Notes under the pieces: model-generated
The model's database searches: none
Seen by the model: the letters and a program-made list of their open reading frames with translations, nothing else
Told to the model about the DNA's origin: nothing
Origin: Sedimentisphaerales bacterium
GTDB lineage: Bacteria; Planctomycetota; Phycisphaerae; Sedimentisphaerales; UBA12454
Reading direction: 5' to 3'
DNA: 64,000 nt
Assembly (NCBI GenBank): GCA_050014075.1
Contig: JBEKEA010000003.1
Span: forward strand, 22,638-86,637
Program-made: the position numbers and the translations under genes
Part shown: piece by piece, positions 25,708-64,000 of the stretch
How the letters are laid out: each line of letters starts with the position of its first letter
Numbering within the stretch: position 1 is the first letter of the stretch

Positions 25708-26979
25708 TTACTGACCTTTTTTCAATAATACGACGGGAATAGTTTTTGCGAGGATATAAAGATTCAAAATTAAAGAACGCCGCTGAATATAGAGGTAATC
25801 GTACTTTAACTTATGATTAGGATGTAAATTATAAGCGCTTCTTACCTGTGCCAGACCCGTAAGTCCCGGCTTGACAGCCAATCTTATCTCCATCAGCGCC
25901 TTATGGCGTTTGACGAAATATGGTCTTTCTGGTCTTGGGCCAACTAAACTCATCTGGCCAAGTATAACATTTACTAACTGTGGAATTTCATCAAAGCGTG
26001 TATCCCTTAGGAATCGCCCGACTTTTGTTACGCGAGGATCATTCTCCGCCGCCCAAACAGGCCCAAGCTGCTTTTCGGCATCATGAACCATTGTCCTGAA
26101 TTTATACAGGGTAAAAATCATACCATCTTTGCCCACCCTTTGCTGTTTATATAAGACAGGCCCTTTGGATGTTAGCTTGATTAATATACCAATAAGAATG
26201 GTTAATGGCAGAGAAACAACCAAAATAACCAGACTACTCAAAACATCAAAACTTCTTATCAGAAACTCTTCGGCGTCTCGCTTTCTGCCGACAAAAGTGG
26301 CCAAAGGATGCTCTGAACCATCGCCATTAATCCTTCCCGGCAGCAGCTTAGCGTAACAAACAGGGCCAAAGACAACTTCTATTTTCAGCTTTTGCGCAAG
26401 ATAGGTTATAAAGCTCATATCTTTTTCATTGGGGATTGGGTCGCAGATAATAATTTCATCAATGTCTGCACAATTGATTAGTTCTTCGACTTTATTAATT
26501 TCTATTTTTTCTATGTTGGCTTTTCCCACCATAAAGTCGTCTATATTAACTTGCCCCAAGACTGCGACTTTCTTTTTGATTCTCCTGCAAATCCTTAATG
26601 CAACCCGATTAAACCTGAAAATCAGAAAAATATTAATAAAAAAGGAAATAAGGAAAACGGATGTCGGAAAGGAACCCCACTTTATTCTAAACACATAAAC
26701 AAAAGCAATGCTCATCAGCGTACCAAGAAAAAGCCCTAAAAAAACTTTTTCAAACAATACCCATGAGGATTTGAATCTGCTTTTATAAGTTCCAAATAAA
26801 GCTAATGACAATACATATATCAAAGTTAAAAAAATAAAATTGCTTTTGTAAGGATTAAAATTAATATCAGGGAAAGTAAAACCATATCTAAGCAAAAATG
26901 AACCAATAAAACCTCCATTGATTAAGACCGCATCTGCCAAAACCAAGATAATCTGAATGGGAAAATTACGATTGCGCAA
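25708..26979 (-). CDS. polyprenyl-phosphate hexose-1-phosphate transferase (WbaP/WcaJ/EpsB-type priming sugar transferase)
   Basis: 423-aa ORF. N-terminal TM helices plus a C-terminal bacterial sugar transferase domain ([54 protein letters not shown]). Confidence 0.85.
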
Positions 26980-26996
26980 ATTATCACCTCTACTAA

Positions 26997-28121
26997 TTAT
27001 AATTTTTCACGTAGAATTTTAATTATTCTTTCCGCAGCTTTACCATCACCATAAGGGTTCACTGCTTTGGTCATTTTGTTATATGCAGAATCATCCATCA
27101 ATAGATTCCTGCATTCATTAAATATATTTTCTTGTTTATTCCCTATAAGCTTTGCGGCGCCGACTTCGATTCCTTCCGGGCGCTCTGTGGTATCCCGCAT
27201 TACTAAAATTGGTTTATTAAAAGTAATTGCCTCCTCCTGTACCCCGCCGGAATCTGTCAAAATGAAGTAAGACCTCTTCATCAAACATATAAATGAGAGG
27301 TAATCCAGAGGTTCACACAAATAAATATTAGGCAACTTACCTTGATTTAAAATTTCACCAACAGGTTTCTGCACATTAGGATTCAAATGGACTGGATACA
27401 CAAAATCATATTCAGGCGTATCCTCTGCCAGTTTTCTTATCGCAGTACAAATATCCTTAAACCCTTCACCAAAACTTTCTCTTCTGTGTCCAGTAATTAA
27501 AACAAACTTCCTATCTGTAAGAAGAAATCCGAACTTCTTCTGAAGTTTCTCGTTTATATCGGTATTTTTCATTATATCCAGAACATCATAGATGGCATCA
27601 ACAATGGTATTGCCGGTAACAAATATTTTTGCTTCGGAAATACCTTCTTTAAGCAGATTGGTTTTAGATATATTCGTAGGTGCAAAATTTAAATCTGCTA
27701 TTTGAGTCGTTATACGTCTGTTGATTTCTTCCGGAAAAGGTGCATATTTATTATTGGTTCTAAGGCCAGCTTCTATGTGTCCTACCGGCACTTTCAGATA
27801 ATATGAGGCCAGAGAAGCCGCAAGCGTTGTGGTAGTATCTCCCTGAACAAGAACAATATCAGGTTTACTTTCACTGATAATTTTTTTAAGACCACTCAGT
27901 ATGCTACTCGTTACGACAAAAAGGTCCTGATTAGCCCGCATTATATCCAAATCATAATCGGGCTTAATCTTAAAAATATCCAAAACCTGATCCAGCATTT
28001 GTCTATGCTGAGCAGTTATACAAACTTCAGTTTCGAAATCAGAACAAGACACCAGACGCCTGATTACTGGAGCCATTTTTATGGCTTCTGGACGTGTTCC
28101 AAATACTGCAAGAACTTTCAT
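26997..28121 (-). CDS. wecB: UDP-N-acetylglucosamine 2-epimerase (non-hydrolysing)
   Basis: MKVLAVFGTRPEAIKMAPV N-terminus, HIEAGLRT, DSGGVQEE and TERPEG motifs. Start placed at the Met whose ATG overlaps the upstream TAA (TAATG). The ORF is open to 28145. Confidence 0.9.
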   Translation of the reverse strand: MKVLAVFGTRPEAIKMAPVIRRLVSCSDFETEVCITAQHRQMLDQVLDIFKIKPDYDLDIMRANQDLFVVTSSILSGLKKIISESKPDIVLVQGDTTTTLAASLASYYLKVPVGHIEAGLRTNNKYAPFPEEINRRITTQIADLNFAPTNISKTNLLKEGISEAKIFVTGNTIVDAIYDVLDIMKNTDINEKLQKKFGFLLTDRKFVLITGHRRESFGEGFKDICTAIRKLAEDTPEYDFVYPVHLNPNVQKPVGEILNQGKLPNIYLCEPLDYLSFICLMKRSYFILTDSGGVQEEAITFNKPILVMRDTTERPEGIEVGAAKLIGNKQENIFNECRNLLMDDSAYNKMTKAVNPYGDGKAAERIIKILREKL

Positions 28122-28897
28122 TACTCCGGTCTCTGACAAAACCACCCGATACTACCTGCAAAAAGATTAAAAGGCCAGCACCTCCTGCATGGGTAATCAA
28201 TCAAGTTGATAAGCAATTGCAGTGCACAAGGAAATCTTACATGATTAAAAGTAAGTCCACGCATATTGACATATTTAAAACCTGCGACTTTCAGCCCTTT
28301 GGTCAGGCTTGGGGGAAATATTGGCCTTTCTCCTTCAACTTTTCCAGTAACATTACCCATAAATTTTGTGGCAAGAGTAGTGATCCAGCTAAATGGAAAC
28401 ATGGAACTCGGCTCTAATATCGCCAATGTGCCCCCCTTCCGCAACAATCTAAAAAATTCCCTTATATAAGGTTCAAACCCAACATCGAGTACATGATGTA
28501 AAAACAGAGGGCAAACAATAATATCAAAAGATTGATCTTCATACCCAGATTGCAGGATATCCCCTTCTTTCCTAATGATAATGTTTGGACATTTGGAAAG
28601 AGCGATATCAGAAATATCTATGCCATGAACTACGTCATATATGCCTTGCAAGTATTTAAAATCGTCACCTTCACCTACAGGTGCTATCAAAACCGCAGCA
28701 GTATTTCTATATGGCTTCCTACTTATGTACCTGTATAAATATCCGAAGAATCTTATTTTTTGTATTTCATTTTGCAACCAATGTCTTTCTCTCGATGCCA
28801 ACAATGGATGTGATGTCCAATGACCTGAATCTATATAAAACTTCGATTCATGCCATTTTTTTTCAGCCGCTATATCCTGACTATGCTTGTCTCTCAT
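28121..28897 (-). CDS. class I SAM-dependent methyltransferase
   Basis: 258-aa ORF. VLIAPVGEGDD (motif I-like), FDIIVCPLFLHH and LRKGGTLAILEP (motif III-like). Confidence 0.65.
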   Translation of the reverse strand: MRDKHSQDIAAEKKWHESKFYIDSGHWTSHPLLASRERHWLQNEIQKIRFFGYLYRYISRKPYRNTAAVLIAPVGEGDDFKYLQGIYDVVHGIDISDIALSKCPNIIIRKEGDILQSGYEDQSFDIIVCPLFLHHVLDVGFEPYIREFFRLLRKGGTLAILEPSSMFPFSWITTLATKFMGNVTGKVEGERPIFPPSLTKGLKVAGFKYVNMRGLTFNHVRFPCALQLLINLIDYPCRRCWPFNLFAGSIGWFCQRPE

Positions 28898-28907: not shown

Positions 28908-29945
28908 TTATATGTCCTTATCCCTTACTGCCGAGGACATTCCCGGAGAAAATGAAGCTGATTTTTCAATTAGCTCCCAATTTTTTTTGAACCATTCTAC
29001 CGTCACAGCTAATCCTTTTTCAAACGCGACTTTAGGTTGATATCCTATAAGTTTATTAGCCCTTTCTACTGACGCCAAAAGTCTGCTCTTTGTGTCCCAT
29101 TTCCTCCTGGACACAAATTTTATACCAGCTTTATTGCCGGTAGCTTCGTTAATCATATTGGCAAGATTTATTATCGAAGTTTCCTTTCCTGAAGCCAAAT
29201 TAAATTCCGCTCCCACAGCTTTTTCGCAGAATCCTGCTCTCAAAAGCCCATCGACCAAATCGCCAACATAGGTAAAATCTCTTGTTTCATTACCAGTTCC
29301 GGTAATCGAAAGAACTTCGCCTTTCATAGCCCAATAAATAAAATTAGGTATTACGTTTCTGTACTGGCCCGGCACTTCTCCCGGCCCATAAGAGTTAAAA
29401 AATCTCGCCTTTACAACAGGCAAATCATAATGGTTAAAAAAGAAATTACAGTAAAGCTCACCCAGCATTTTTGTAATTTGATAAGGTGTACTTAAATTCA
29501 TAGACATAAATTCTTCCTTTAATGGCAGCGGTGCATTACTACCATAAATGGAACAACCGGAAGAAGCATAAATGAATCTTTTGACTCCCGTCAGCATAAG
29601 ATACTGCAGCAGTTTTAAGGTGCCGATGCCATTTGTTATTATATCTTTCTCGGGATAATCAACGGAATTTTGGTTTGCAAAAAAGGCAGCCAAATGAAAA
29701 ACAATCTCAGGTTTTTCAGACAAAACACGTTTCAACATTATATCATGAGTTACATCACCCTCAACAAACATGACATTAGGCAATGCTGGTATATTCCACT
29801 TAAAAGAAGAAGTGAGATTGTCGAGAACTATTACACATTTAGCTTTGCATTCGGCCAACGCTTTAGTTAGATTACATCCTATAGCACCAGCCCCACCTGT
29901 AACGAGTATCACTTTACCATTATAATAGTCATGATATTCTGCCAT
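28908..29945 (-). CDS. NAD-dependent nucleotide-sugar epimerase/dehydratase (extended SDR)
   Basis: 345-aa ORF. VLVTGGAGAIGCNL Rossmann motif, SSGCSIYG and YQITK (Y-x3-K). Confidence 0.8.
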   Translation of the reverse strand: MAEYHDYYNGKVILVTGGAGAIGCNLTKALAECKAKCVIVLDNLTSSFKWNIPALPNVMFVEGDVTHDIMLKRVLSEKPEIVFHLAAFFANQNSVDYPEKDIITNGIGTLKLLQYLMLTGVKRFIYASSGCSIYGSNAPLPLKEEFMSMNLSTPYQITKMLGELYCNFFFNHYDLPVVKARFFNSYGPGEVPGQYRNVIPNFIYWAMKGEVLSITGTGNETRDFTYVGDLVDGLLRAGFCEKAVGAEFNLASGKETSIINLANMINEATGNKAGIKFVSRRKWDTKSRLLASVERANKLIGYQPKVAFEKGLAVTVEWFKKNWELIEKSASFSPGMSSAVRDKDI

Positions 29946-29958: not shown

Positions 29959-31179
29959 TTAATTTAGAATCTGCTTAAATAGTTGTATGTACTTGTCAGC
30001 ACAAACATTAAGCGAAAAATTTTCCACACAATAACAACGCCCATTTTTGCCGTACTGCTCACGAAGTTCGGGAGCAGTGTACAGTTTAAGTATGGCCATC
30101 GCAAGCTCTTTATGGTCGCCAGCAGGAAATACAAAACCACATTGAGCTTGTTCTACTATTTTTGACGCATCACCTTTCAAATTCATACAAGCTATCAACG
30201 GTTTCCCAGCAGCCATGATACTTAACATCTTCGACGGCACTACCGGCGTTAAAACTTCTTTTTTCAATGCTGAAAGACAAATATCTGAGCAATGCAAAAC
30301 CTGGGAATATACATCACGAGACTGCATAGGTATAAACAAAATATTTTTAAGATTCATTTCATTTGCTTTTTTCTCAAGACGACTTTTCTCCACTCCATCC
30401 CCCACAATTAAAATTAATATGTCCTTTTTCTCTCTGATCAGATTTGCAGCATCAAGTATCACATCAATATCCTGAGAATAACCAATAACGCCAGCAAAAG
30501 AAACAACAAATTTGTCCTGCAAATTGTATTTTTGGCTGAAGACATTATATTTTTTGCCAGGCTGAAGATAATCTGTGTCAATCCAGTTAGGTACAACAGT
30601 CGTTTTCTTGCCATCAATTCCAATTGTTACAATATAATCTTTATTGCCTGTGGAATGAACCGTAATGTGTTTGGCATAATCACATATCTTTTTCTCAAGA
30701 TACTTAAAAAAATGTATCAAAAATCTATTTTTAAGAATTTTTAAATCTATCGCGCTTTGCGGGAAGAGATCTTGAACATTAAAAATAAAAGGCGTTCCAT
30801 TTTTTGTTAACGATATGCCCACAAAACCAAGGGGCAACGGAGGTGAGTATACCAATGCGATATCATGCCTTTCAATTCTCCTGGCAGTGATTGAAAAGTA
30901 ATATGCCATTGCAAAATGCCATAAAGCCCGCATCGCCGGAATATATCTGGGAAATTGTGGAACTTTTACACGAATAACAGACATATTCTCTATCTGTTCT
31001 TTTAGAATCTTTCGTGACTTATAGCCTTTGGTATCTCCTACTACATGATAGGACGGGAAAGAGGTAAGTACAGTAACCTCTATCCCTTTTTGTACAAGTT
31101 TTTTCCCCAGATCATAAAAAAGATTAGCAGCCGAACCCGTATCAGGAGGAAAATATGCACTAATAAGCAATACTTTCAT
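29959..31179 (-). CDS. glycosyltransferase family 4 (WbuB-like GT-B)
   Basis: 406-aa ORF. MKVLLISAYFPPDTGSAANLFYDL N-terminus and a C-terminal GT1/GT4 E-x7-E-like region. The ATG overlaps the upstream TGA (ATGA). Confidence 0.75.
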   Translation of the reverse strand: MKVLLISAYFPPDTGSAANLFYDLGKKLVQKGIEVTVLTSFPSYHVVGDTKGYKSRKILKEQIENMSVIRVKVPQFPRYIPAMRALWHFAMAYYFSITARRIERHDIALVYSPPLPLGFVGISLTKNGTPFIFNVQDLFPQSAIDLKILKNRFLIHFFKYLEKKICDYAKHITVHSTGNKDYIVTIGIDGKKTTVVPNWIDTDYLQPGKKYNVFSQKYNLQDKFVVSFAGVIGYSQDIDVILDAANLIREKKDILILIVGDGVEKSRLEKKANEMNLKNILFIPMQSRDVYSQVLHCSDICLSALKKEVLTPVVPSKMLSIMAAGKPLIACMNLKGDASKIVEQAQCGFVFPAGDHKELAMAILKLYTAPELREQYGKNGRCYCVENFSLNVCADKYIQLFKQILN

Positions 31180-33341
31180 CCGATATCCTCAATTAAAATT
31201 GGCTTGCCGGTTTTCAAAGACTCAACAATACTGAAAACTGTCATCGCATTAACATAATATTCTCGAGTTTCCTCTGCAGAAACTTCTTGTGTAATAAAAT
31301 GTTTAATTTCATTCTCATATCCCATGTCCTGAGAAAAATGCGTCATTTTCTTTCGCTTATTGCTTTTAACCCTTACAGCCCGTTTGAAATCCTCAAGATA
31401 ATATACTGATTCATCCCGAAACACTTCAATTATTTCACGCGGGTATGCCTTGCTGCCCTGAGACGTATAGGTAATAGTCCCAACCGACCCATCTTCGCAG
31501 TTCATGATGACAATAATGTTATCATTGCTTTTATACTTTTCTGTCGACCTTATACTTTCCGTGTAAACTCTCACCGGTTTAGAGCCTGTGATAAACTGCA
31601 CATAATCTACAAAGTGGCATAGCTCACCGATGATCCTTCCGCCACCAACCTCGCTATCTTGCGTCCAGTGGTTGTCATCAATGTATCCCGCATTTATCCT
31701 GTAGTTTATCATGAAAGGACCAGCCTGTCCGAGAAACTCTTTCATGTCTTCCGCATACGGACTATATCTTCTGTTAAACCCCACCATTAATATTGAGTGA
31801 CTTGCATTATAAACATCAACGATTTCTTTTAGTTCCGCTTTATTCAGACATAACGGTTTTTCCACAAAAACATGTTTATTTGCTTTTAACGCCTCAATTA
31901 CAATCCTGGCATGCATATCATGTCTTGTCATTATAAAAACGCTTCCAATATCAGGGTCTTCCAGCAGTTTCCGATAATCGGATGTTGCATAATTAAAACC
32001 GAATTTTGAGGCTATGTGTTCCGAGGTAATACCTCTGGTAGTTGCAATGCCTATAAGATTAATGTTTTTTATTTTTACCAAAGTCGGCAAAAACAGATTT
32101 TTAGTGAACATACCGCCACCGACAAAACCTACGTTGTCCCGCTTATCATTAATAGGCCTTGTGCAAGAATCCTTTTTAACAACAATGCTAAGTTTCTTAA
32201 GCTGATCCCCATCGGGCAATCCTCTAGAATACTCAAGCACAACTCCAATATAAAATTCACTACATTCAAGCAGCATTTTATAAGCTGGAACCGCTTCATT
32301 AATTTCAAACCTGTGCGTAATCAATTCTTTTACTTTAACTTTATTTTCCGACACCAACTTTAGAAAATACTCTATATTCTTCTTCTCAGGCCACCGAACA
32401 TACCCAATGGGGTAATCTATTCCCAAAACTTCATAGTTGGCATCTGAAATACCTGGTCCCGCTGCTTTAGAAACCCGAAACTCAAGTTCCTTATCCCAAA
32501 AGTCTTTTCTGTCCAATTGTATGTTGCATACTCCCACCAACACAACTTTACCTCTTTGACGAGTAATTTTTTGAGCCATCTGAATCGGACGGTCATCTTC
32601 AGTCGCCGCCGTAATCAACACGGCATCCATTCTGTCCTGACAATCAACAACCAAAGCTTCAATTTCTGAATAAACTTTTTCGCATCCCAATTTTCCTGCT
32701 AACTGGCACTTCCTGTCATCGATGTCGATACCTACAACTTCACATCCTACAGCCCTTAGAATCTGAACTGTAATAAGACCAAGCAATCCCAGGCCAACAA
32801 CTGCAACCTTTTCTCCAAAAGTCAATTTGGCTTCTCTAATACCATGTAAGGCAATCCCTCCCAGCATGCAAAATGCTGCTTCTTCAAAATCCAGAGATTC
32901 ACCCGTATTTCTTAAGGGTATTTTTACACATAGATTCTCAGGAATAAAATTATACTCTGAGTGATTAGCGTAGCCGGAGCCTGCTATCGCCACTTTATCT
33001 CCCACTTTAAAATCACTCACACCATTTCCAACCTCCACTATTATTCCTGCAGCGCTGTATCCTAAAGGAAATGGTTCGTCCAACCTGCTCATGGATTCCT
33101 TGAATACCTTAAACAGGCCTTCTTTTAGGGCTTTGTCTAATGCCCTTTTAAACAAATCAGGCCTTGCTTTAGCCTTATAAAGGATATTCTTGCGGGCAAA
33201 GTCGATAATGGATTTCTCTGTCCCTGCGCTAATAAGCGAATCTATGGTTTTTACTATTACTCCTTTTGATTTACACAAAGGATAAGGAACCTCTCTTAAT
33301 GCTAACTCGCCCGTTTTAAGATTTTGAATAAGTTGTTTCAT
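31176..33341 (-). CDS. bi-domain oxidoreductase: zinc/MDR alcohol-dehydrogenase-like N-half fused to Gfo/Idh/MocA C-half
   Basis: ~721 aa. The N-half has GYSAAGIIVEVG...VAVVGLGLLGLITVQIL (MDR Rossmann). The C-half has VGFVGGGMFT...HVFVEKP (Gfo/Idh/MocA EKP motif). Start placed at the ATG at 33341. The ORF is open to a TTG at 33347. Confidence 0.75.
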   Translation of the reverse strand: MKQLIQNLKTGELALREVPYPLCKSKGVIVKTIDSLISAGTEKSIIDFARKNILYKAKARPDLFKRALDKALKEGLFKVFKESMSRLDEPFPLGYSAAGIIVEVGNGVSDFKVGDKVAIAGSGYANHSEYNFIPENLCVKIPLRNTGESLDFEEAAFCMLGGIALHGIREAKLTFGEKVAVVGLGLLGLITVQILRAVGCEVVGIDIDDRKCQLAGKLGCEKVYSEIEALVVDCQDRMDAVLITAATEDDRPIQMAQKITRQRGKVVLVGVCNIQLDRKDFWDKELEFRVSKAAGPGISDANYEVLGIDYPIGYVRWPEKKNIEYFLKLVSENKVKVKELITHRFEINEAVPAYKMLLECSEFYIGVVLEYSRGLPDGDQLKKLSIVVKKDSCTRPINDKRDNVGFVGGGMFTKNLFLPTLVKIKNINLIGIATTRGITSEHIASKFGFNYATSDYRKLLEDPDIGSVFIMTRHDMHARIVIEALKANKHVFVEKPLCLNKAELKEIVDVYNASHSILMVGFNRRYSPYAEDMKEFLGQAGPFMINYRINAGYIDDNHWTQDSEVGGGRIIGELCHFVDYVQFITGSKPVRVYTESIRSTEKYKSNDNIIVIMNCEDGSVGTITYTSQGSKAYPREIIEVFRDESVYYLEDFKRAVRVKSNKRKKMTHFSQDMGYENEIKHFITQEVSAEETREYYVNAMTVFSIVESLKTGKPILIEDIG

Positions 33342-33343
33342 GT

Positions 33344-35819: not shown

Positions 35820-35949
35820 ATACTCACAAGTCTTTTTATAAATTGTTCAACAATATCTTCGGATTATATTCTCTAATCTGGAAAAATCCTAACAACAGAA
35901 AGAATGAATTTCTTATAGAGGCATATTCGTAAATGCAGCTATCTAAAGG

Positions 35950-38837: not shown

Positions 38838-39047
38838 TCTTAGATTTGTCTTTACAATTCTTTATGAATGTCGACTTATCAAAAACCACTTTTAAGCTCT
38901 TTCATAGCTTCATCGTTATCCACAATAGTAATGTTTACCATACCTTATGCCATTTATTCACTATTTAAATTAACATTTACAGATTTCTTTCAAACCGCAC
39001 TTTACAAAAAAAATAACGGTTAGTCCAGATATTATAGCAGAACTCCT

Positions 39048-50228: not shown

Positions 50229-50229
50229 T

Positions 50230-55483: not shown

Positions 55484-57358
55484 TTAACCCGCCTTTTCTT
55501 TTATAAGGGTAAATATAGTGCGGAAAATCTCTTTAACAGCCTCCGGTCCTTCACAGCTTATCATCTCATTGATTTTGTCATGATTGTAATTTTTACTGCC
55601 ATTATATAAGAAAGCTTTAACGCTTGGCAGAATACCTTTTCTATCATAGACAGGGCAAGCCCCATATTGCGGATAATTTACAAGATCTTCCGAACCATCA
55701 AAATTCACATATATAACCGGCTTATTCTTTATCATTGCGTCAACCGCAATGCTTGAGTCGCCTACTATAAGTATGTCGCAAAGTTCAAGATAATCTTGAG
55801 CATCACCATACTTCGTGATAAGTATATTACTATGACCTGCTCTGACATTATCATAATCTGAAAGCCTTTCAGCCGGATGCAATTTAACAACCAGCATTAT
55901 ATTCTCTAATTCAACTAACTCATCAACTATAGCTTGAATTATCGGTATATTCCCCTTGAGTCGGGTCAATGAATCAATACATATAACCGGCTGGGTCGCA
56001 ACCAGTATTATTTTTTTCTCGTAAGGAAGATTAAGCTTTCGTCTTAAATTATCAATATCGATTCCCGTGTTTTTTTTCCGAGTTGAAGTAATACGGCCGG
56101 TGATAAAAATTCTGTTTGACTCAACACCATGCCTAAGATACCAGTCCTTTGTCATCTTTCCCCAAACAAGAACGGCATCGGCCACAACTGGAAGATACGA
56201 TGGAGCCCACTTTGTAACTCCATGTTGGATTTCTGCTGTCGATATCCCCATCGCTGAAGCCTGTTTCAGAATTGACCTTGCCTCAGGCGCTACTGATGAC
56301 GGGCTAATAACACATTTTATATCCTTCTCTTTTGAAATTTTGTAACGGAAAATCTCCATTTCCTCAACAAGCCTGGGGTAAATATATTTTAACTCATAAT
56401 ATAAACGTCTGTATATGACAGGCCAAATATCAACGTTGTTAAATAAAAATGGTTTTAGCTTCTTCAGACTTATATTTTGGCTGATGTTGGATTTTAAATT
56501 TTTAACCTTATTTCTTATTCTTCGTCTATATTGCCCGTCCATCCTGACTTCCGTAAAAGTTTGTGTCGGAATGCCATATCCCATAAAGATTTTCTTCGCC
56601 TCAAAATCCTCCCGAACCAGAGCTTCCACAGAATATCCCTTTTCTATCAGAACGCTCATCAGCTTTACAGAGCCAATAAGCAAATTTGCCGGTCCCGTAA
56701 ATATAATTCCGCTTTTCCCGTTTTTTTTTATTCCTCCAGAAAACCTTTTTAAAACATATTTCAGATAAGTCCAAAACGTATCCACAGATACGCCGCCTTG
56801 AAACAACATCAGAAGGTGCCATTTTTCAAACCGGTATTTCAGCTTTTCTTTAAGAAAAAATATGGTTTTATGGTCTTTTTTAAGAGCTGTTGTTTCAATA
56901 TTATCTTTTTGTGTAAACGCTTTTATAACATATGCCCACAAATTCTCCGGAGGCCCCATATTAAACGGCTCAATATTAGACGAATAAATGATCTTTGATG
57001 GATGATACCGGGCGTATATCTTTTCAAGAATAATTATTCTCTTGAAGACCTCTATAAAATATCCTGTCAGGAAAAGCTCGGAGAACTCACCCATATTGAT
57101 GCCATCACACGTACAGATATCAACAATGTCTTTTTGTTTATACCAATTCCTTGCGGTCTCTACCGCTGCATCATTGACAATTCTGAAATCCTCCGGGTTT
57201 ATATACTCAGAAAAATCTGTGAATGGAATCCCAACGGCCTGCAAATTCAAGACAACGGCATTTGATAAAGTAATAATCCGATTGTTTTCAATCTGGGATA
57301 GTTTACTAATCTTTTTTAATAGCTTAAAATCTAAAAATTGAACTAAAACTATATTCAT
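55484..57358 (-). CDS. large GT-B-like capsule/teichoic-type glycosyl- or glycerophosphotransferase (uncertain)
   Basis: 624-aa ORF. The C-terminal half (VATQPV...VVKLHPAE...DILIVGDSSIAVDAMIKNKPVIYVNF) resembles Capsule_synth/TagF-like transferases. Contains an A9 tract at 56721..56729. Confidence 0.4.
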   Translation of the reverse strand: MNIVLVQFLDFKLLKKISKLSQIENNRIITLSNAVVLNLQAVGIPFTDFSEYINPEDFRIVNDAAVETARNWYKQKDIVDICTCDGINMGEFSELFLTGYFIEVFKRIIILEKIYARYHPSKIIYSSNIEPFNMGPPENLWAYVIKAFTQKDNIETTALKKDHKTIFFLKEKLKYRFEKWHLLMLFQGGVSVDTFWTYLKYVLKRFSGGIKKNGKSGIIFTGPANLLIGSVKLMSVLIEKGYSVEALVREDFEAKKIFMGYGIPTQTFTEVRMDGQYRRRIRNKVKNLKSNISQNISLKKLKPFLFNNVDIWPVIYRRLYYELKYIYPRLVEEMEIFRYKISKEKDIKCVISPSSVAPEARSILKQASAMGISTAEIQHGVTKWAPSYLPVVADAVLVWGKMTKDWYLRHGVESNRIFITGRITSTRKKNTGIDIDNLRRKLNLPYEKKIILVATQPVICIDSLTRLKGNIPIIQAIVDELVELENIMLVVKLHPAERLSDYDNVRAGHSNILITKYGDAQDYLELCDILIVGDSSIAVDAMIKNKPVIYVNFDGSEDLVNYPQYGACPVYDRKGILPSVKAFLYNGSKNYNHDKINEMISCEGPEAVKEIFRTIFTLIKEKAG

Positions 57359-57365
57359 AACCAGG

Positions 57366-58739
57366 TTAACATGACTGCTTTTTCAATTTCGCAAAAAGTC
57401 TATTTATCATAAACCATATCTGCAAACGTCTGCTCCACGCATATTTTGCCTTCTTGATGGGATTTCGAAAACAAAATAAAAAATATCCAATAATTTGAAT
57501 TATCTCTAAAGATATATGGGATACTTTTTTAAACTCTAACGCATGCCCATATTGTTTACTGTAAAAACTCCAATCATTGTGAGTTAGTGTATACCCACCT
57601 TCACCTTTTAACGCCATTTCTCTAACCAATGTCCCCGGAAAAGGAATCATTATGCCGAAAGAGACATTATCCGCCCCTATATAAAAAGCCAGTAGAATAG
57701 TTCTTATAGCGCTGAAAAAAGTTTCATTCGGATGTCCAAGAATAAAATAACTCCCCGTAGTTATGCCTAAATCTTTGCATGTTTGTATGATATTTTTTGC
57801 TTCCTTATTGTCGAAATCCTTACTTTGGCTTTTCCTTATTTTTCGATTGGCCGATTCAATGCCGAAACCTATACTAGTTAAACCGGAATCTCTCATTATT
57901 TTAAGTAACTCCGGATTTCTACTGATAACATCAATTCTTGATTCTGCCCCCCATACGCCTCCCCACTTTTTCATTATGTTACATATGTCCAATGTCCGTT
58001 TATAATCTAATGCAAAAGTTTCATCATTGAATTCGATGCTTTTTGTTTTATCGGGAAGGGTCCCCATGAATTCCTCAAATTTTTTGGGAGACATATTTCT
58101 GACTTTATTCCCATAAGGACGACTGCAAAAATGACAGGGGTAGGGACATCCTCTTGTTGTTTGAATACGATAATTGGATGCCGGTTTTAACAAGTGGTAA
58201 GCCGGTAAAGGCAGATTATCCAGATTTGTTTCTACGGGTCTTGCCGGATTGACAACAATGTTTCCGTTTAATCTCCAGGCAAGTCCTTTAACCTTATCTA
58301 AATTATTATTTCCGTTTTCACGGATTTCCTTAATTAACTCCGCAAGGGTATCTTCCCCTTCTCCAAAAACAAGCAAATCAAAAACATCAAACTCTTCGAG
58401 TGTTTGTTTTGGTAAAAACGTAGTGTGCACCCCTCCGATAACAGAAAATTCTATATTAAAATTTGCTTTAATCTCCTTCATAATATGCGACGCCAACATA
58501 ATCTCCTGAGTAAACGCGGTTATCCCAACCACGTCCACCTCAGAACCAAAGTGTTTTTTTATTTCAGTTATAACTTGAGCAAGCTTAAGACCGTCATACT
58601 TCATGTCCAAAAGAAGGATGTCAGTCATAGATTCGATTGCTCCCGCTAACTGGCATATCGTAAGATTGGGAGTATCAGTCCTGTCATAGGCTTCTTCGTG
58701 TGAATAATCCGGAGATGGATTAATCAATACAACTTTCAT
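57366..58739 (-). CDS. B12-binding-domain radical SAM enzyme
   Basis: 457-aa ORF. N-terminal B12-binding-like domain (VVGITAFTQ...VIGGVHTT) and radical SAM cluster TRGCPYPCHFC. Confidence 0.85.
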   Translation of the reverse strand: MKVVLINPSPDYSHEEAYDRTDTPNLTICQLAGAIESMTDILLLDMKYDGLKLAQVITEIKKHFGSEVDVVGITAFTQEIMLASHIMKEIKANFNIEFSVIGGVHTTFLPKQTLEEFDVFDLLVFGEGEDTLAELIKEIRENGNNNLDKVKGLAWRLNGNIVVNPARPVETNLDNLPLPAYHLLKPASNYRIQTTRGCPYPCHFCSRPYGNKVRNMSPKKFEEFMGTLPDKTKSIEFNDETFALDYKRTLDICNIMKKWGGVWGAESRIDVISRNPELLKIMRDSGLTSIGFGIESANRKIRKSQSKDFDNKEAKNIIQTCKDLGITTGSYFILGHPNETFFSAIRTILLAFYIGADNVSFGIMIPFPGTLVREMALKGEGGYTLTHNDWSFYSKQYGHALEFKKVSHISLEIIQIIGYFLFCFRNPIKKAKYAWSRRLQIWFMINRLFAKLKKQSC

Positions 58740-58788: not shown

Positions 58789-59658
58789 TTATTTCACTCT
58801 TCTGAGTTTGGCAATAATGGACTTTTCGGAGTCGTATAGTACTTTTTTGCCGTCTCCATATATGACTGGCCAAAGACGAATATCTCTTACCAGTCGCTGC
58901 AGGCCTTGAGGTTCCATGCTCGCTGCCTGGTCACTGCCCCACATAGCTCGGTCAAGTGTGATATGCCTCTCCACAGAACAAGCACCGGTACAAATCGCCA
59001 TCACGGAAGGTATCACTCCTACTTCATGACCACTATATCCAACAGGAACTTTGTAGCGAGTTTTAAGGGCTTCTATCACTTTCAAATTAAGCTCTTCATT
59101 CTTGGACGGATATGTCGAGGTACAATGATATATTATCAGATCTTTTTGACCAAGAACCTCCACGGCATGGTCAATCTCATCCAGAGTACTCATCCCCGTG
59201 GACAGCAATATAGGCTTACCTTTCTTTCTCGTGTATCTCAATAAATTATCGTCGGTTAAACACGCTGATGCTATTTTATAACATGGCGGATTAAACTGCT
59301 CTATAAAATCAACCGATTTCTCATCCCAACAAGAGACGAACCACATTATTTTTTTCTTCTTACAATAGCTATCAATAACTTCATATTCCGACTGTCTAAA
59401 CTCGAGCCCTCGTTTAAGGTCGCCGTTGGTTTTACCAAAGGGACTTTCTCTGGGCGCCGCAAGTTCCTGAACCGTATAAACAATATCCACTGTCCGTTTT
59501 TGGAATTTCACCGCGTCGCAACCACATTCATGGGCAATATCTATAAGCTTTTTGGCAATTGATAAATCACCATTATGATTTATGCCAATTTCCGCCACAA
59601 TAAAAAAGGGTTCGCCATCACCAACAATATGCTTTCCTATTTTGACTTTAGTAGTCAC
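58789..59658 (-). CDS. NeuB-family nonulosonic/sialic-acid synthase-like aldolase lacking the C-terminal SAF domain
   Basis: 289-aa ORF. PFFIVAEIGINHNGDLSIAKKLIDIAHECGCDAVKFQKR and YSGHEVG match NeuB/SpsE-type synthases. About 50-60 aa shorter than NeuB/PseI/LegI. Confidence 0.75.
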   Translation of the reverse strand: MTTKVKIGKHIVGDGEPFFIVAEIGINHNGDLSIAKKLIDIAHECGCDAVKFQKRTVDIVYTVQELAAPRESPFGKTNGDLKRGLEFRQSEYEVIDSYCKKKKIMWFVSCWDEKSVDFIEQFNPPCYKIASACLTDDNLLRYTRKKGKPILLSTGMSTLDEIDHAVEVLGQKDLIIYHCTSTYPSKNEELNLKVIEALKTRYKVPVGYSGHEVGVIPSVMAICTGACSVERHITLDRAMWGSDQAASMEPQGLQRLVRDIRLWPVIYGDGKKVLYDSEKSIIAKLRRVK

Positions 59659-59706: not shown

Positions 59707-60744
59707 TCAAATATCTTCTACAACGGTCATTGTTTCCATAGAACGTTTAGCCGCAAGAGCTATTCGTAAACTTTTTATCCCTTCATGAATATCCACAATT
59801 GTCTGCTTATGCATTTTTATACAATCCATAAAATAACTCATCTCATCAAGGAATAATTTGTTGCGTTCAAAGGGATTGAAATCAAAAGTTTCCCAATTCT
59901 GCTTCCTGCCAACTTGAAGCTCAACTTTATTGGAATAATAATCCCAGGATATTTTCCCCTTTTCACCAATAATACGAAAATTTCTCGAAGCCGGGTCTTG
60001 AAGAAAATCAAGATGTACATGAATAGGAAGTTTTCTGCCATCTACTACATTCTCCATAAGAATACTGCTGGTATCTTCAACATCCATCTCCAGCGTACTT
60101 AACTTGCCGCCCAAAGTTAACAGTCTCCTGGGCATTCCAAACAGCCATTGCAAATAATCGAACTCATGGCTCAATGAAAACAATACACCCCCACCCAAAT
60201 CTTTCCTGGCGGCATATCCTTTACGGTAGTCTTCATACGGATGAGCATTTGGAAGATATTCGCCAAATTCAGCAAATACCGAAATTAGAGCTCCTATCTT
60301 TTTTTGCCTTAACAACTCATTAATCAATTGTAAACATGGATGAAATCGTAATTGATAACCCACCATAACAATCAATTGCTTCTCTTTTACAATTGATTCC
60401 AATTTGTCTATTTCTGTTAGACTTGTAGAAATCGGTTTTTCTATAAATAAGTGACAGCCTAAATTTGCAGCCTCCAAAGCTGCAGACATATGTAATTTCG
60501 TAGGATTTGCGATAATCGCCGCATCCGGTTTTTGCTCTAAAATTTCACGATAATCAGAATAAATTTTAACTCGGTAAGCACTTTCCAAATCGACATCGTT
60601 TTCTATGGTCATATTTTCAGAAATTTTGATATTCTTTCCAATAGAACGATACGCCAAAATTTCCAATTCATCACCAAACAACTGCCGCAGATTGCGCAGA
60701 TGCCGTTGACCTATCGAACCAAGTCCAACAATAAGCACTTTCAT
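59707..60744 (-). CDS. Gfo/Idh/MocA family NAD(P)-dependent oxidoreductase
   Basis: 345-aa ORF. MKVLIVGLGSIGQRH Rossmann motif and HLFIEKP (EKP motif). Confidence 0.8.
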   Translation of the reverse strand: MKVLIVGLGSIGQRHLRNLRQLFGDELEILAYRSIGKNIKISENMTIENDVDLESAYRVKIYSDYREILEQKPDAAIIANPTKLHMSAALEAANLGCHLFIEKPISTSLTEIDKLESIVKEKQLIVMVGYQLRFHPCLQLINELLRQKKIGALISVFAEFGEYLPNAHPYEDYRKGYAARKDLGGGVLFSLSHEFDYLQWLFGMPRRLLTLGGKLSTLEMDVEDTSSILMENVVDGRKLPIHVHLDFLQDPASRNFRIIGEKGKISWDYYSNKVELQVGRKQNWETFDFNPFERNKLFLDEMSYFMDCIKMHKQTIVDIHEGIKSLRIALAAKRSMETMTVVEDI

Positions 60745-61487
60745 ACCGAGTATCTTTTTGTATTTTTAGAAGTTTTAATATTGCCTTTTTGCAGTTCCAT
60801 TAAAAGCTTTTCAGCTTTTTTAATGTCTTCCTCATGGTCGATGTCAACCCCGTCATCTTCGACAATAAAAGGAAGAATTTTGTCACCGCTCATTTTCCCT
60901 TTTTCTGTTATAATTTTGGACCTGACCATATCTACATACCCAAATTGCCAGTAAACCCTCGGCAATATCTGCCGAGGCATATTAAATGACTCATTAAATT
61001 CCGCCAGCGACAGCAATGGTTCCATATATTTATCAACGATTTTCCACATCTTATAAGGTGTTTGCGCAGCTAAACGCAATGACCTCAGCGAATCAGCCTC
61101 GGGATTATTTATAAAATACTCAATAGCCTCATCGATAATTTTAACACTTCTAATTGGATACACAGTTCTATGATTTAATACAATATCCGGCGTATAATCT
61201 TCGTTTTCCTTAAGCCATTTCAAAGCATGGCGAAAAACATCAATATCAGGAGACAAGTCTTGCGCAAATTCCTCTGGACGCCGGAAAGGCACTTCCGCTC
61301 CATATTTTAAAGAAACTTCCACAATTTCTTCATCTTCAGTTGAAACGATAACCCTGTTGATTAATCGAGAGGCGAGTGCCTGTTCTATCGCATAAGCAAT
61401 TAATGGCTTGCCGCCTATTTCTACCAGATTCTTTCTTGGTATCCCCTTTGAGCCGCCCCTGGCCGGAATTAATGCCAATATTTCCAT
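60741..61487 (-). CDS. acylneuraminate (nonulosonate) cytidylyltransferase family protein
   Basis: 248-aa ORF. ALIPARGGSKGIPRKNL is the canonical CMP-NeuAc/CMP-KDO synthetase-family N-terminus. Confidence 0.85.
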   Translation of the reverse strand: MEILALIPARGGSKGIPRKNLVEIGGKPLIAYAIEQALASRLINRVIVSTEDEEIVEVSLKYGAEVPFRRPEEFAQDLSPDIDVFRHALKWLKENEDYTPDIVLNHRTVYPIRSVKIIDEAIEYFINNPEADSLRSLRLAAQTPYKMWKIVDKYMEPLLSLAEFNESFNMPRQILPRVYWQFGYVDMVRSKIITEKGKMSGDKILPFIVEDDGVDIDHEEDIKKAEKLLMELQKGNIKTSKNTKRYSV

Positions 61488-61513: not shown

Positions 61514-62329
61514 TTAAAGGAGAGTTTTAACAAACTCCAAATTCTTTTTAGCTGCCTCTATAGGATTATCGCACATTGTTGTTTCCAATATATAACTGCC
61601 CTTGTATCTTGCTTTTTTAAGGGACTTAAAGCATTCCGGAAAATCAACAAGCCCCGTTCCCAACATAACATTATGGCCTTCTTTATCTCTATCCTTAATA
61701 TGCACACCGCCAATCCATTTTGAAAGCCTGCGGATTTCCTCCGCTGGATCATGTCCTAAATACGCACTATTGCCAACATCATAATAAACCTTTATGTTCG
61801 GATGACCGATTTCTTCCAAAAACTCCTGTGTTTCCTGCCATTGTAATGTGGCTTCAAAACAAAGATTTATCTCTTGTCTTCTCAATAATTCACCGACCAA
61901 ACTTATGACATCAATTATATCGTCCTTATCTTTTCTGCTGCTGACGCTGGATTCTTCCAAAAGTGGGATTAATATAGTATTACATTGGATAACTCTGCTT
62001 GCATCGATTAACTTTTCAAGTATAAAAATATTGTCCTCTTTTGCCTGCGGGCTTCTTTGAAAAAAACCATACCTCTTGAAAAAATCCGCACAAACCGATG
62101 ACACACTAATTTTTGAAGACTCCGATAGTTCGACAATTCTCTCCTGTCCGCTTTGGCACATTAACGGATTATTATAATAAGCATCTATATCAAAAAGAAG
62201 TTCGATCGCAGAAAATCCGCTCTTTTTGCAAACCTCAAATTCTTCTTCCCATGTTTCAGAAGGGAAAACCTGATATTTTTTTATATCTTTCGGCAATAAC
62301 CGGCCCTGTATAATACCAATTTTATTCAT
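61514..62329 (-). CDS. xylose-isomerase-like TIM-barrel sugar-phosphate isomerase/epimerase
   Basis: 271-aa ORF with the layout typical of AP_endonuc_2/xylose isomerase-like TIM barrels (FSAIELLFD..., NLCFEA..., HIKDRD...). Confidence 0.6.
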   Translation of the reverse strand: MNKIGIIQGRLLPKDIKKYQVFPSETWEEEFEVCKKSGFSAIELLFDIDAYYNNPLMCQSGQERIVELSESSKISVSSVCADFFKRYGFFQRSPQAKEDNIFILEKLIDASRVIQCNTILIPLLEESSVSSRKDKDDIIDVISLVGELLRRQEINLCFEATLQWQETQEFLEEIGHPNIKVYYDVGNSAYLGHDPAEEIRRLSKWIGGVHIKDRDKEGHNVMLGTGLVDFPECFKSLKKARYKGSYILETTMCDNPIEAAKKNLEFVKTLL

Positions 62330-62338: not shown

Positions 62339-63055
62339 TCAGGACCTTTTTGGTTTCTCGGCCGCTGCAAGCAGCATCATCTCTTTGGAAAAACGGATTA
62401 ATTTATTCACCTTAGACTGCTCATAGTCCTTCCATTTTAAAGCATCCGGCAGCAGAGAAATTATCTTAGGTATAAAAACAAGACTGGGATATCGCCAGAT
62501 AAAAGGCAACTGCATAAATAAAGACACATTGACATTTACATATCCATTGATTTTCAACGCATTTTGCAGACTTTTCTTCGTAAAGGCTTTGACATGTGTA
62601 TAATCGTCCCAGAAAAATTTATATTGCGACTCCCATGCGGGTGTCATTAAAACGGCTCGTCCGCCAGGTTTCAATACCCGAAGTATTTCAGAAATCATAT
62701 TATCGGTATTAGATACATGTTCCAGAACAGATTTGGAAAACACCCAGTCAAAAGAATTGTCATCATAAGGGAATTCCTCTTTTTCAATATCACATTCTTT
62801 TATCGTAAAATCCCTTAATGCCTCAATACATTCCCTGCGTTTATCCAGTCCCGCAACCTGATAATTACATCTCTTGAAAGCAACCAGATGATTGCCCTTC
62901 CCGCTGCCGACATCCAGAAGCCTGCCGGAGTATATTTTTCGGCCGTTCTCGATTTTATAAAAATAATTCTCGCCAACATATTTACAAAGTTTATGAGGAT
63001 AACTGTTTTCTGAGTATTCGTCTGTAAAATATATTGTTTCTAAATAACTTCCCAT
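62339..63055 (-). CDS. class I SAM-dependent methyltransferase (Methyltransf_11-like)
   Basis: 238-aa ORF. RLLDVGSGKGNH (motif I), FDWVFSKSVLEHV and LKPGGRAVLMTP. Confidence 0.8.
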   Translation of the reverse strand: MGSYLETIYFTDEYSENSYPHKLCKYVGENYFYKIENGRKIYSGRLLDVGSGKGNHLVAFKRCNYQVAGLDKRRECIEALRDFTIKECDIEKEEFPYDDNSFDWVFSKSVLEHVSNTDNMISEILRVLKPGGRAVLMTPAWESQYKFFWDDYTHVKAFTKKSLQNALKINGYVNVNVSLFMQLPFIWRYPSLVFIPKIISLLPDALKWKDYEQSKVNKLIRFSKEMMLLAAAEKPKRS

Positions 63056-63079
63056 TTTGAGGTTGCCTTTCTTAAATAT

Positions 63080-64000
63080 TTATTTTTTACCCTGATTAAG
63101 TACCATGTTATGGCATACCTTCATTCTGGCCGTATGAAAAATATTCGATGGCAAAAAGAAATTATAAATAAACTTTATTAAAACTTTTAGTTTGATAGCT
63201 TTTCGTCCCACCATGTCCTTGTCTTCCCTATGAGTAATAACCTTCCAGGCAACATTATCAATATGGTGGTGGAATTTGCTATTTGGAAGCTTAATCAACA
63301 GACAAATAAGCGGTTTTAAAAAAGTGAAATAAGTTCCAAATGTAAATAAATTAAGAAGGTTATTAATTTTCTCAACCTCATGATTATTATTAAACTTCAG
63401 TATACTTATCCAATGGAAGTTGTCCGGAATATTATCTTCAAACTCCCCCCTCTTAAGATACCCCATCTCAATGGCTTTTTCAGTAAGCTCCATACCCGGA
63501 TAAGGTTGAAACTTACTGGCTGTAGCAACTTCAGGTTTAGACTTTATATTCAACTCAAATGTTTCCATCGCGGTCTTGAAAGTTTCACCTGGCAAAAGAA
63601 GTATGTTTTGTATCCTCATGCCGAGCCCATAATCATGAACGATTCTGGCCCCTTTCAGCATCTGGATATTTGTCACCGGCCGTCTTAATAATTCTCTCCG
63701 CCTTTGTTCATTTCCAGTCTCTATAGCTGTTTCAATAATACGACATCCTGCATCTGCCATCAGAGAAATCCTTTTCTCTGCCATCATGGTTGGATGCAGG
63801 TGTGCGTCCCATGGTAATCCGACCTCTTTTTTGTACATATCACAAAAAGATCGCAACCAGCTAAGGTTGACACCAAAGGTATCATCCTGAAATAATATAT
63901 GCTCTACCTCATTTTCAGTTAAGGAAAGCCGAAACTTAATCATTTCTATACAATATGCCGGGGAAGGAGCACGAACAACCTTTCCAAGCCCCTTGTATAT
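63080..64000 (-). CDS. radical SAM family enzyme, 5'-partial (continues beyond window edge)
   Basis: The reading frame is open from 63943 to the window end. The visible part (FQDDTFGVN...RIIETAIETGNEQRRRELLRRP...ILLLPGET) matches the core downstream of the Fe-S motif in B12-binding-type radical SAM enzymes. The cluster motif itself is outside the window. Confidence 0.65.
   Translation of the reverse strand: MYKGLGKVVRAPSPAYCIEMIKFRLSLTENEVEHILFQDDTFGVNLSWLRSFCDMYKKEVGLPWDAHLHPTMMAEKRISLMADAGCRIIETAIETGNEQRRRELLRRPVTNIQMLKGARIVHDYGLGMRIQNILLLPGETFKTAMETFELNIKSKPEVATASKFQPYPGMELTEKAIEMGYLKRGEFEDNIPDNFHWISILKFNNNHEVEKINNLLNLFTFGTYFTFLKPLICLLIKLPNSKFHHHIDNVAWKVITHREDKDMVGRKAIKLKVLIKFIYNFFLPSNIFHTARMKVCHNMVLNQGKK

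Follow-up and report, generated by a model that had tools for sequence, protein, structure and literature searches.

A mosaic Wzx/Wzy-type surface-glycan locus of a Phycisphaerae planctomycete carries six radical SAM genes that probably tailor its sugars

Background

A 64,000-nucleotide (nt) stretch of a Sedimentisphaerales bacterium contig (JBEKEA010000003.1; the whole stretch is called the window here) carries a long one-strand run of glycan genes in which several genes for radical S-adenosylmethionine (SAM) enzymes are embedded. Why does such a locus hold so many radical SAM enzymes, and what would they do there? Judged from its genes, the window contains most of a Wzx/Wzy-type locus for a surface glycan, which would resemble O-antigen or exopolysaccharide, in an uncultured anaerobic planctomycete of the class Phycisphaerae. 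The best explanation overall, which we consider probable, is that this locus is a mosaic whose radical SAM enzymes tailor its sugars. That they act on sugars appears well supported by the gene neighbourhoods described below.

When the literature was searched, no characterised B12-type radical SAM enzyme was found in a polysaccharide locus (O-antigen, capsule or nonulosonic acid), and two reviews of the B12-type class do not mention glycans. The sole mention found was of an unstudied radical SAM gene in the capsule region of Campylobacter jejuni HS:19.

Results and discussion

Extent of the locus

When the open reading frames (ORFs) of the window were listed and scanned with Pfam, all 33 supported consecutive genes between 25708 and 64000 were found on the minus strand, in agreement with the initial annotation. 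The coding fraction of this interval is 97.7 %, and its plus-strand ORFs are short and nested within minus-strand genes. GC skew is strongly negative across the whole interval, and the guanine-plus-cytosine (GC) content is about 0.37 vs about 0.41 in the flank. Gaps between genes do not exceed 60 nt, except for three of 111 nt (43596-43708), 210 nt (38837-39048) and 130 nt (35819-35950). Minus-strand stop/start overlaps (ATGA at 31176-31179 and 60741-60744, TAATG at about 28121, ATGTTAA at 49206-49212) had been listed and every one is present.

The array had been described as about 38 kb long. It is real and co-directional, and the cluster reaches further. A protein-identity look-up recovered a 110,669-bp metagenome contig from the European Nucleotide Archive (L001; ERZ27250059, contig k141_94548). 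It matches the window at 100 % identity in the 11.7 kb that were compared, and on it the cluster extends about 6.2 kb past the window edge at 64000, for a total of about 44.5 kb and about 40 genes. This extension holds genes for a methyltransferase, a fifth B12-domain radical SAM protein, a short-chain dehydrogenase/reductase (SDR), a phosphatase of the KdsC/Kdn-9-P type, a truncated GDP-mannose dehydratase and a membrane protein that weakly resembles Wzz. Outside the cluster on L001 lie an oppositely oriented rubrerythrin gene and a gene for an extracytoplasmic function (ECF) sigma factor.

The full cluster has six radical SAM genes, five of the B12-domain type and one of the SPASM type. Against a genome-wide frequency of a few percent, six among about 40 genes would be very high; loci with comparable multi-copy radical SAM content exist elsewhere.

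Radical SAM proteins

The radical SAM genes of the window are as follows.

63080-64000, minus strand: 3' part of a B12-domain radical SAM gene encoding 503 amino acids; frame open to 64000, Pfam Radical_SAM on the C-terminal half
57366-58739, minus strand: B12-domain radical SAM (CPYPCHFC); PF02310 47.2 bits, PF04055 66.2 bits
52181-53212, minus strand: radical SAM/SPASM enzyme without B12 domain; PF04055, PF13186 28.1 bits vs 21.5
42148-43596, minus strand: B12-domain radical SAM (CYGKCIFC); PF02310 59.4 bits, PF04055 86.9 bits
34326-35819, minus strand: B12-domain radical SAM (CPFHCSYC); PF02310 88.8 bits, PF04055 101.6 bits

The initial annotation had proposed three complete radical SAM genes with B12-binding-like N-terminal domains, and each of them passes both PF02310 and PF04055 and carries the motif quoted for it (TRGCPYPCHFC in 57366-58739, SRGCYGKCIFC in 42148-43596 and SRGCPFHCSYC in 34326-35819). 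The 5'-partial gene at the window edge had been taken for the same type. It is whole on L001 (8465-9976), where it encodes a 503-amino-acid protein with PF02310 (47.5 bits), PF04055 and the motif CPYNCTYC. The fifth gene lies at L001 6104-7465. All five proteins thus have PF04055 and a CxxxCxxC motif, and their N-terminal domains all score as B12-binding (PF02310 at 47.2, 47.3, 47.5, 59.4 and 88.8 bits vs a gathering threshold of 32.1). The protein that had been singled out for lacking a B12 domain and having extra C-terminal cysteines (52181-53212; motif CNHKCIWC) passes the SPASM model PF13186, with six additional cysteines at residues 250, 260, 278, 279, 318 and 322 that may serve one or two auxiliary clusters. 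It reaches no curated family.

As judged from profiles and a structural model, the five B12-type proteins have the architecture found in the first structural class of radical SAM enzymes that depend on B12. The AlphaFold2 model of gene 34326 (mean predicted local distance difference test score 90.6) was aligned by Foldseek with MgmA, TsrM, AprD4, CysS, OxsB and TokK at template modelling (TM) scores of 0.59-0.68 and E-values of 1e-16 to 4e-21, with only 15-22 % identity to the class B methyltransferases. MgmA (9CCB), a B12-dependent glutamine C-methylase, is the best match of gene 34326 in the PDB sequence search as well as in structure. An N-terminal B12-binding Rossmann domain followed by a CxxxCxxC barrel is likewise found in the class B C-methyltransferases GenK, GenD1, Fom3, TokK, CysS and MgmA/QCMT; unlike those of the characterised class B methylases, the substrates here would be polysaccharide precursors. 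Sugar-acting members of this architecture are GenK and GenD1 (amino-sugar C-methylation), AprD4, OxsB and HpnJ.

The five proteins are only 23-33 % identical to each other, so they are old paralogues; recent duplication was considered as the origin of the five genes and rejected on this account. Their C-terminal tails are aromatic-rich (e.g. RRGWARR...RWWWGKEK) and basic: the last 60 residues carry a net charge of +8 to +10, which accounts for most or all of that of the whole protein. These tails point weakly to anchoring at the membrane surface.

In an alignment of 37 sequences of the 34326 family, C293 is invariant and C279 and C313 are nearly so, in addition to the CxxxCxxC cysteines. These residues could form a second metal site or supply a catalytic thiol.

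Glycan genes

The remaining genes of the interval were assigned as follows. Two glycosyltransferase families are abbreviated GT2 and GT4, and NDP stands for nucleoside diphosphate.

62339-63055, minus strand: class I SAM methyltransferase (Methyltransf_23/11, E 5e-18)
61514-62329, minus strand: xylose-isomerase-like TIM-barrel protein of sugar/sugar-phosphate epimerase/isomerase type (PF01261, E 1e-29); matches to L-ribulose-5-P 3-epimerase weak, all under cutoff
60741-61487, minus strand: cytidylyltransferase of the type of synthetases for cytidine monophosphate (CMP)-ulosonic acids (PF02348, E 1e-22; PseF 136 bits vs cutoff 205.7); shares the ATGA overlap with the following gene
59707-60744, minus strand: Gfo/Idh/MocA oxidoreductase (PF01408 and PF02894)
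58789-59658, minus strand: NeuB-family phosphoenolpyruvate-condensing ulosonic acid synthase, short, without C-terminal SAF domain (PF03102, E 1e-77); NeuB_NnaB 246 bits vs cutoff 399.7, profile positions 2-276 of 329
55484-57358, minus strand: 624-amino-acid candidate glycosyltransferase, possible ulosonic-acid transferase (weak PF04464, 26.6 bits); TIGR04396 and BFO_1060 glycosyltransferase matches weak, under cutoff
54541-55482, minus strand: GT2 glycosyltransferase (PF00535, E 4e-36)
53235-54551, minus strand: Wzy_C-family membrane protein, polymerase or ligase (PF04932 45.6 bits vs 31.7; this family comprises ligases as well as polymerases)
51159-52148, minus strand: SDR NDP-sugar epimerase/dehydratase (PF01370, E 2e-44)
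50230-51171, minus strand: thiamine diphosphate-dependent 2-oxoacid dehydrogenase E1 alpha (PF00676; pyruvate dehydrogenase E1 alpha 264 bits, below cutoff)
49206-50228, minus strand: thiamine diphosphate-dependent 2-oxoacid dehydrogenase E1 beta (PF02779 and PF02780)
48139-49212, minus strand: lipoyl-carrier domain fused to a NeuD/PglD-type sugar N-acyltransferase (PF00364, PF17836, Hexapep; NeuD_NnaD 142 bits)
47003-48121, minus strand: DegT-family sugar aminotransferase (PF01041, E 7e-122)
45431-46942, minus strand: Wzx-type flippase (MatE, Polysacc_synt and MurJ, all above Pfam thresholds)
44666-45385, minus strand: TylF-like methyltransferase with in-frame TGA at 45113-45115, probable pseudogene (PF05711)
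43708-44679, minus strand: WecE-type dTDP-4-amino-sugar aminotransferase without its 3' end (Pfam profile positions 8-279 of 360)
40990-42117, minus strand: divergent DegT-like protein (PF01041 in residues 75-148 only, E 4e-9); gene order the same in relative L094
40091-40960, minus strand: polysaccharide deacetylase (PF01522)
39048-40049, minus strand: FemAB/Acetyltransf_6-type (aminoacyl) transferase (PF02388 and PF13480; weak pepcterm_femAB match)
37659-38837, minus strand: GT4 glycosyltransferase (PF00534 and PF13439)
36647-37636, minus strand: LegB-like NDP-sugar 4,6-dehydratase (TIGR04180 442.9 bits vs cutoff 475)
35950-36633, minus strand: sugar-1-phosphate nucleotidyltransferase (PF00483, E 7e-40)
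33344-34321, minus strand: DUF362 protein (PF04015)
31176-33347, minus strand: bi-domain oxidoreductase, zinc alcohol dehydrogenase-like and Gfo/Idh/MocA (PF00107 and PF01408)
29959-31179, minus strand: GT4 glycosyltransferase, WcaI-like (PF00534 and PF13439; WcaI family 170 bits, below cutoff)
28908-29945, minus strand: SDR NDP-sugar epimerase/dehydratase (PF01370, E 2e-49)
28121-28897, minus strand: class I SAM methyltransferase (Methyltransf_11, E 1e-10)
26997-28121, minus strand: non-hydrolysing UDP-GlcNAc 2-epimerase WecB (TIGR00236 507 bits vs cutoff 210; TAATG overlap)
25708-26979, minus strand: polyprenyl-phosphate glycosylphosphotransferase, priming (PF02397, E 5e-64; TIGR03025 308 bits vs 295.6)

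The Wzx/Wzy-pathway parts that had been named were all recovered. The priming transferase and WecB score over curated cutoffs, and the flippase, the Wzy_C protein, the GT2 and the two GT4s score above Pfam thresholds. Together with the NDP-sugar genes, their placement on one strand, the GC content below that of the flank, a tRNA gene nearby and the mosaic variation among close relatives, this is the make-up of Wzx/Wzy O-antigen, capsule and exopolysaccharide clusters. Unlike those clusters, this one has six radical SAM genes embedded in it and a chain-length regulator that is only weakly Wzz-like (L001 2812-4047; Wzz 15 bits vs a cutoff of 25.5, over the N-terminal 32 residues only). No Wza or Wzc export genes were seen in the locus.

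Several sugar modules can be distinguished. The 5' module comprises the NeuB-family synthase, the PseF-like cytidylyltransferase, the KdsC-like phosphatase, the TIM-barrel epimerase/isomerase-like protein and the Gfo/Idh/MocA oxidoreductase, and would follow the logic of a CMP-activated 3-deoxy-2-ulosonic, sialic-acid-like sugar. The other modules (LegB-like dehydratase with nucleotidyltransferase; DegT aminotransferases; deacetylase with FemAB-like transferase; E1 alpha and beta with the lipoyl/NeuD fusion) would serve NDP-6-deoxy-amino sugars with N-acyl or aminoacyl decoration.

With the nonulosonic pathways of the legionaminic (Leg), pseudaminic (Pse) and Kdn types the locus shares a NeuB-family synthase, a CMP-transferase, a KdsC/Kdn-9-P-type phosphatase, a LegB-like dehydratase, a DegT aminotransferase and a NeuD-type acyltransferase. 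However, all Leg/Pse/Neu equivalog cutoffs are missed: besides the NeuB, PseF and LegB scores listed above, PseI reaches 209 bits vs 340 and LegC 198 vs 420. Those pathways use NeuC or LegG, whereas the 2-epimerase here is WecB and the NeuC model gives only 99.7 bits vs 235.9. They also differ in that the synthase here lacks the SAF domain and that three radical SAM and two methyltransferase genes are interleaved. A canonical legionaminic or pseudaminic acid pathway was therefore rejected, and the 5' module was not filed under any named pathway.

The E1 alpha and beta genes (49206-51171) adjoin the fusion gene 48139-49212, in which a lipoyl carrier (motif ETSKS) is joined to a NeuD/PglD-type acyltransferase that replaces the E2 catalytic domain. 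This arrangement suggests that an amino sugar receives the acyl group directly from acyl-dihydrolipoate. Such fusions are common: there are 210 representatives at E<=1e-30, and about 130 of the best 150 align over their full length. A literature search on E1/lipoyl genes in O-antigen clusters found nothing relevant. A PDB sequence search with the DUF362 protein and with the 624-amino-acid protein (55484-57358) returned no relatives.

Three gene remnants were observed in the cluster. When the TylF-like gene was translated and the codon read directly, the in-frame TGA was found to be one base from TGG, and with tryptophan placed there the PF05711 match spans the stop. Of three SAM methyltransferases reported for the locus (62339-63055, 28121-28897 and the TylF-like one), the TylF-like one is thus broken. 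The WecE-type aminotransferase scores 506 bits, above the equivalog cutoff, over profile positions 2-295 of 376, and the C-terminal fifth or so is absent. The third remnant (L001 4160-4603) is a 147-amino-acid N-terminal fragment of GDP-mannose 4,6-dehydratase.

Variation among close relatives

Two contigs of another sample hold copies of gene 34326 that are 95 % and 85 % identical, and both keep its arrangement within a glycan locus. The 95 % relative (L094) is collinear with the window from 43673 to 31456, and gene 42148 is 93 % identical in it. The gene upstream of 43673 differs, and this homology breakpoint (about 43673) lies beside the 3'-truncated aminotransferase 43708-44679. At window position 35782-35819 or so, L094 has an insertion of about 1.5 kb (L094 8473-10001), an extra gene for a 489-amino-acid B12-domain radical SAM protein that occupies the site of the 130-nt gap of the window. 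In the second relative (85 %), the extra radical SAM gene is another one, and the 5' region differs as well.

On the differences between relatives, the low GC content, the nearby tRNA-Ser gene and the gene remnants, the locus is read as a recombining mosaic. Variable surface-antigen loci usually look like this, and by gene comparison the radical SAM genes belong to its variable set.

Genomic context of homologues

Homologues of gene 57366 at 35-41 % identity lie amid GT2, GT4, Wzy and priming-transferase genes in the three loci examined (L003, L005 and L006); in L003, three copies stand between GT2, Wzy, GT4 and priming-transferase genes. Of the other two loci, that of Candidatus Magnetomorum has two copies with GT2, GT4, NeuB and cytidylyltransferase genes. 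The one in an Omnitrophica metagenome-assembled genome (MAG) has four radical SAM genes (two B12-domain copies, one with SPASM and one more) together with GT2 and GT-C (another glycosyltransferase fold class) genes. In a pattern scan across one genome per GTDB species, the closest match to 57366 is 37 % identical, so the species of the window is not in that collection. A distant homologue of 52181-53212 (27 % identity) is found in L006. Since the radical SAM genes of the other loci match different paralogues of the window, these subfamilies travel together.

The family of gene 34326 comprises more than 120 clusters at 48-95 % identity, with names from Firmicutes, Saganbacteria, Nitrospirota, Riflebacteria and Deltaproteobacteria. 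Of the six distant contexts examined, five are glycan loci, three of which have a GT4 gene directly downstream. Genes for DUF362, the bi-domain oxidoreductase, a heparinase II/III-like protein and a UDP-sugar dehydrogenase are found there repeatedly. The DUF362 gene adjoins the family member in L087, L092 and L094 and is one gene away in L093, and the bi-domain oxidoreductase architecture is repeated in L087, L091, L092 and L093.

For the broad family of B12-type homologues, contexts were taken from 80 genomes (25-37 % identity). Because BLAST-based counting was too insensitive for glycosyltransferases, it was replaced by a Pfam scan of the 128 neighbouring ORFs. The glycan link is only partial at this distance, as given below. 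In L010 (a Bathyarchaeota MAG), L020 and L074, seven to ten distant B12-domain homologues form arrays of about 20 kb, in many cases accompanied by a SPASM radical SAM gene.

Proposed role and alternative explanations

We propose that the five B12-domain proteins and the SPASM protein would be cytoplasmic tailoring enzymes, acting on nucleotide-activated sugars or, at the membrane, on the repeat unit already linked to undecaprenyl. In each enzyme a 5'-deoxyadenosyl radical would take a hydrogen from the sugar. The B12-type enzymes would then most likely transfer the methyl group of methylcobalamin to an unactivated carbon; ring contraction, dehydration/deoxygenation or epimerisation would be the alternative outcomes. 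Methyl transfer is favoured because it is the commonest chemistry of the class and has sugar precedents in GenK and GenD1, and on this analogy we hold it tentatively, short of calling it probable. Adjacency to GT4 genes and the basic aromatic tails would suit action at the membrane surface, and close relatives would differ in their radical modifications as they do in serotype-determining genes. The initial annotation had predicted a heavily C-modified repeat unit. Tailoring of sugars is supported; class B methylase status is not established, as MgmA, AprD4, HpnJ and BchE score alike.

A number of observations weigh against this proposal. None of the five B12-type proteins reaches a curated NCBIfam family (best scores 105-239 bits vs cutoffs of about 480-580). 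AprD4 (6FD2) is the best match of 42148 (E 9e-21) and 57366 (E 5e-15) in the PDB sequence search, with MgmA as the other best match of 57366, and at a TM score of 0.68 it is as close to the 34326 model as the methylases are. No cobalamin synthesis or uptake gene and, by Rfam scan, no cobalamin riboswitch was found in the 64 kb plus 9 kb examined. One member of the 34326 family stands alone. Among the 128 immediate neighbours in the broad family, 24 are radical SAM genes and six carry SPASM; glycosyltransferases and sugar epimerases make up only about a tenth. With two genes broken, part of the pathway may be inactive. Finally, a single operon for the whole locus is plausible from the spacing of its genes and from consensus scans; these scans found no terminator-like sites between genes and no promoter enrichment. 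The three larger gaps, the two broken genes and the recombination breakpoint at about 43673 count against regarding the operon as settled.

The AprD4 matches raise the question of whether cobalamin is used at all. AprD4 is the B12-independent diol dehydratase of apramycin biosynthesis, and according to a review AprD4 and ArsL carry similar domains without binding cobalamin. The architecture is therefore compatible with more than one reaction type. Some or all of the B12-domain proteins could be AprD4-like, cobalamin-independent dehydratases that, with a reductase, deoxygenate a sugar, so that the glycan would be rich in deoxy sugars and not in C-methyl groups. AprD4 acts on an amino sugar, has the same two-domain organisation with a Rossmann-like domain, and is the nearest solved relative of two of the proteins. 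The first radical SAM gene past the window edge is immediately preceded by an SDR gene, which may partner it as AprD3 does AprD4. Against this, the NCBIfam model of AprD4 (NF033070) gives only 40-107 bits vs a cutoff of 500 and ranks under the HpnJ, BchE and methylase models for every protein, the N-terminal domains pass the B12-binding threshold with scores of up to 88.8 bits, and conventional 4,6-dehydratases are already present in the locus for deoxygenation. We consider this explanation unlikely.

The leading partial NCBIfam matches of the five proteins are to HpnJ, BchE, ApyD, P-methylases and MgmA. Since no curated cutoff is reached and the sub-threshold scores are similar to each other, no reaction type was assigned. 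HpnJ is the top model for 42148 (200 bits), L001 6104-7465 (151 bits) and L001 8465-9976 (105 bits). At least 42148 might thus be HpnJ/OxsB-like: the deacetylase would free the amine of an N-acetyl-hexosamine already transferred, and ring contraction or rearrangement would then leave the lipid-linked glycan with a carbocyclic, cyclitol-like residue. From 42148, the polysaccharide deacetylase is two genes downstream and a GT4 gene four, and in L003 the order is YdjC-type deacetylase, B12-domain radical SAM, GT4. This enzyme set matches HpnK, HpnJ and HpnI of hopanoid cyclitol-ether synthesis, in which a glycosyltransferase, a deacetylase and a radical SAM enzyme of the B12-domain type work in sequence on a lipid-linked hexosamine. 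Unlike that system, the locus would have an undecaprenyl-linked glycan as acceptor, and no hopanoid genes were found in the window or on L001. HpnJ (TIGR03471) reaches at most 225 bits, with scores around a third of the cutoff of 577.6, the deacetylase here is of the PF01522 type and not YdjC, and the chemistry of HpnJ is itself inferred from genetics only. This explanation has a low probability, below that of AprD4-like dehydration.

It is also conceivable that the radical SAM enzymes leave the glycan untouched. Their genes would be passengers, or would serve to modify lipids, peptides or cofactors, and recombination would have brought several unrelated units together into an apparent super-operon. 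Neighbours in the broad family are for the most part radical SAM genes and not glycan genes, with arrays of up to ten copies in Bathyarchaeota; there are weak matches to lipid (TIGR04072), ribosomally synthesised and post-translationally modified peptide (ApyD) and cofactor (BchE, BzaD) models; and the locus is a mosaic with pseudogenes. However, when membership in lipid or cofactor families was examined, no such classification was obtained, all NCBIfam matches being far below their cutoffs, and Pfam scans found no precursor peptide or lipid-synthesis gene in the locus. The radical SAM genes lie 4-49 nt from sugar-pathway genes, apart from 42148 and 34326, whose upstream gaps are of 111 nt and 130 nt, and across phyla synteny is kept with genes for GT4, DUF362, the bi-domain oxidoreductase and a UDP-sugar dehydrogenase. 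We regard this explanation as very improbable, and tailoring of the glycan by the radical SAM enzymes as the preferred one.

Beyond this locus, the recurring contexts would fit a radical SAM toolkit that spans phyla and remodels the surface glycans of anaerobes by C-methylation, carbocyclic ring contraction or deoxygenation, possibly on lipid-linked intermediates beside GT4s, with 34326, DUF362 and the bi-domain oxidoreductase forming a conserved cassette for one specific reaction. We offer this broader view tentatively, as a fair possibility that falls short of a likelihood.

Flanking regions

Past the 3' end of the cluster, the following features were observed: a convergent PMT_2 (GT-C) glycosyltransferase gene (24177-25688), tRNA-Ser(GCT) (23737-23829), which was the only RNA found in the Rfam scan, a gene for a pilin-like protein with an N-terminal methylation motif (23048-23566), and a 1116-amino-acid restriction-modification fusion of the Eco57I/MmeI type (18954-22304). 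Further genes of the flank encode a WYL/WCX regulator (13491-14471), a protein with a peptidase C39 domain (8529-10325), a homospermidine-synthase equivalog (4082-5287; 463 bits vs 450), a diaminopimelate/ornithine-type decarboxylase (133-1266) and a DUF1559 protein, which is typical of planctomycetes. The flanking ABC-F protein Uup is 79-86 % identical to MAG proteins of Planctomycetota, Phycisphaerae and Sedimentisphaerales. Both proteins support the placement in Phycisphaerae and possibly in Sedimentisphaerales.

Conclusions

The locus is of a known kind. What sets it apart is its unusual set of uncharacterised tailoring enzymes, which is found again across phyla. If the locus proves ordinary after all, a well-annotated O-antigen-like mosaic locus in Phycisphaerae is still gained. 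If the proposed role is true, this would be a class of polysaccharide tailoring without a characterised example, and the surface polysaccharides of uncultured anaerobes would contain C-methyl, carbocyclic or unusually deoxygenated residues beyond conventional sugar-nucleotide enzymology. Such residues would affect recognition by phages and predators and the degradability of glycans in sediments. The 34326 family is the most tractable, with its conservation at 48-95 %, a confident model and fixed neighbours (GT4, DUF362 and the bi-domain oxidoreductase), and it offers a defined target for the first function of a B12-type radical SAM enzyme in polysaccharide synthesis.

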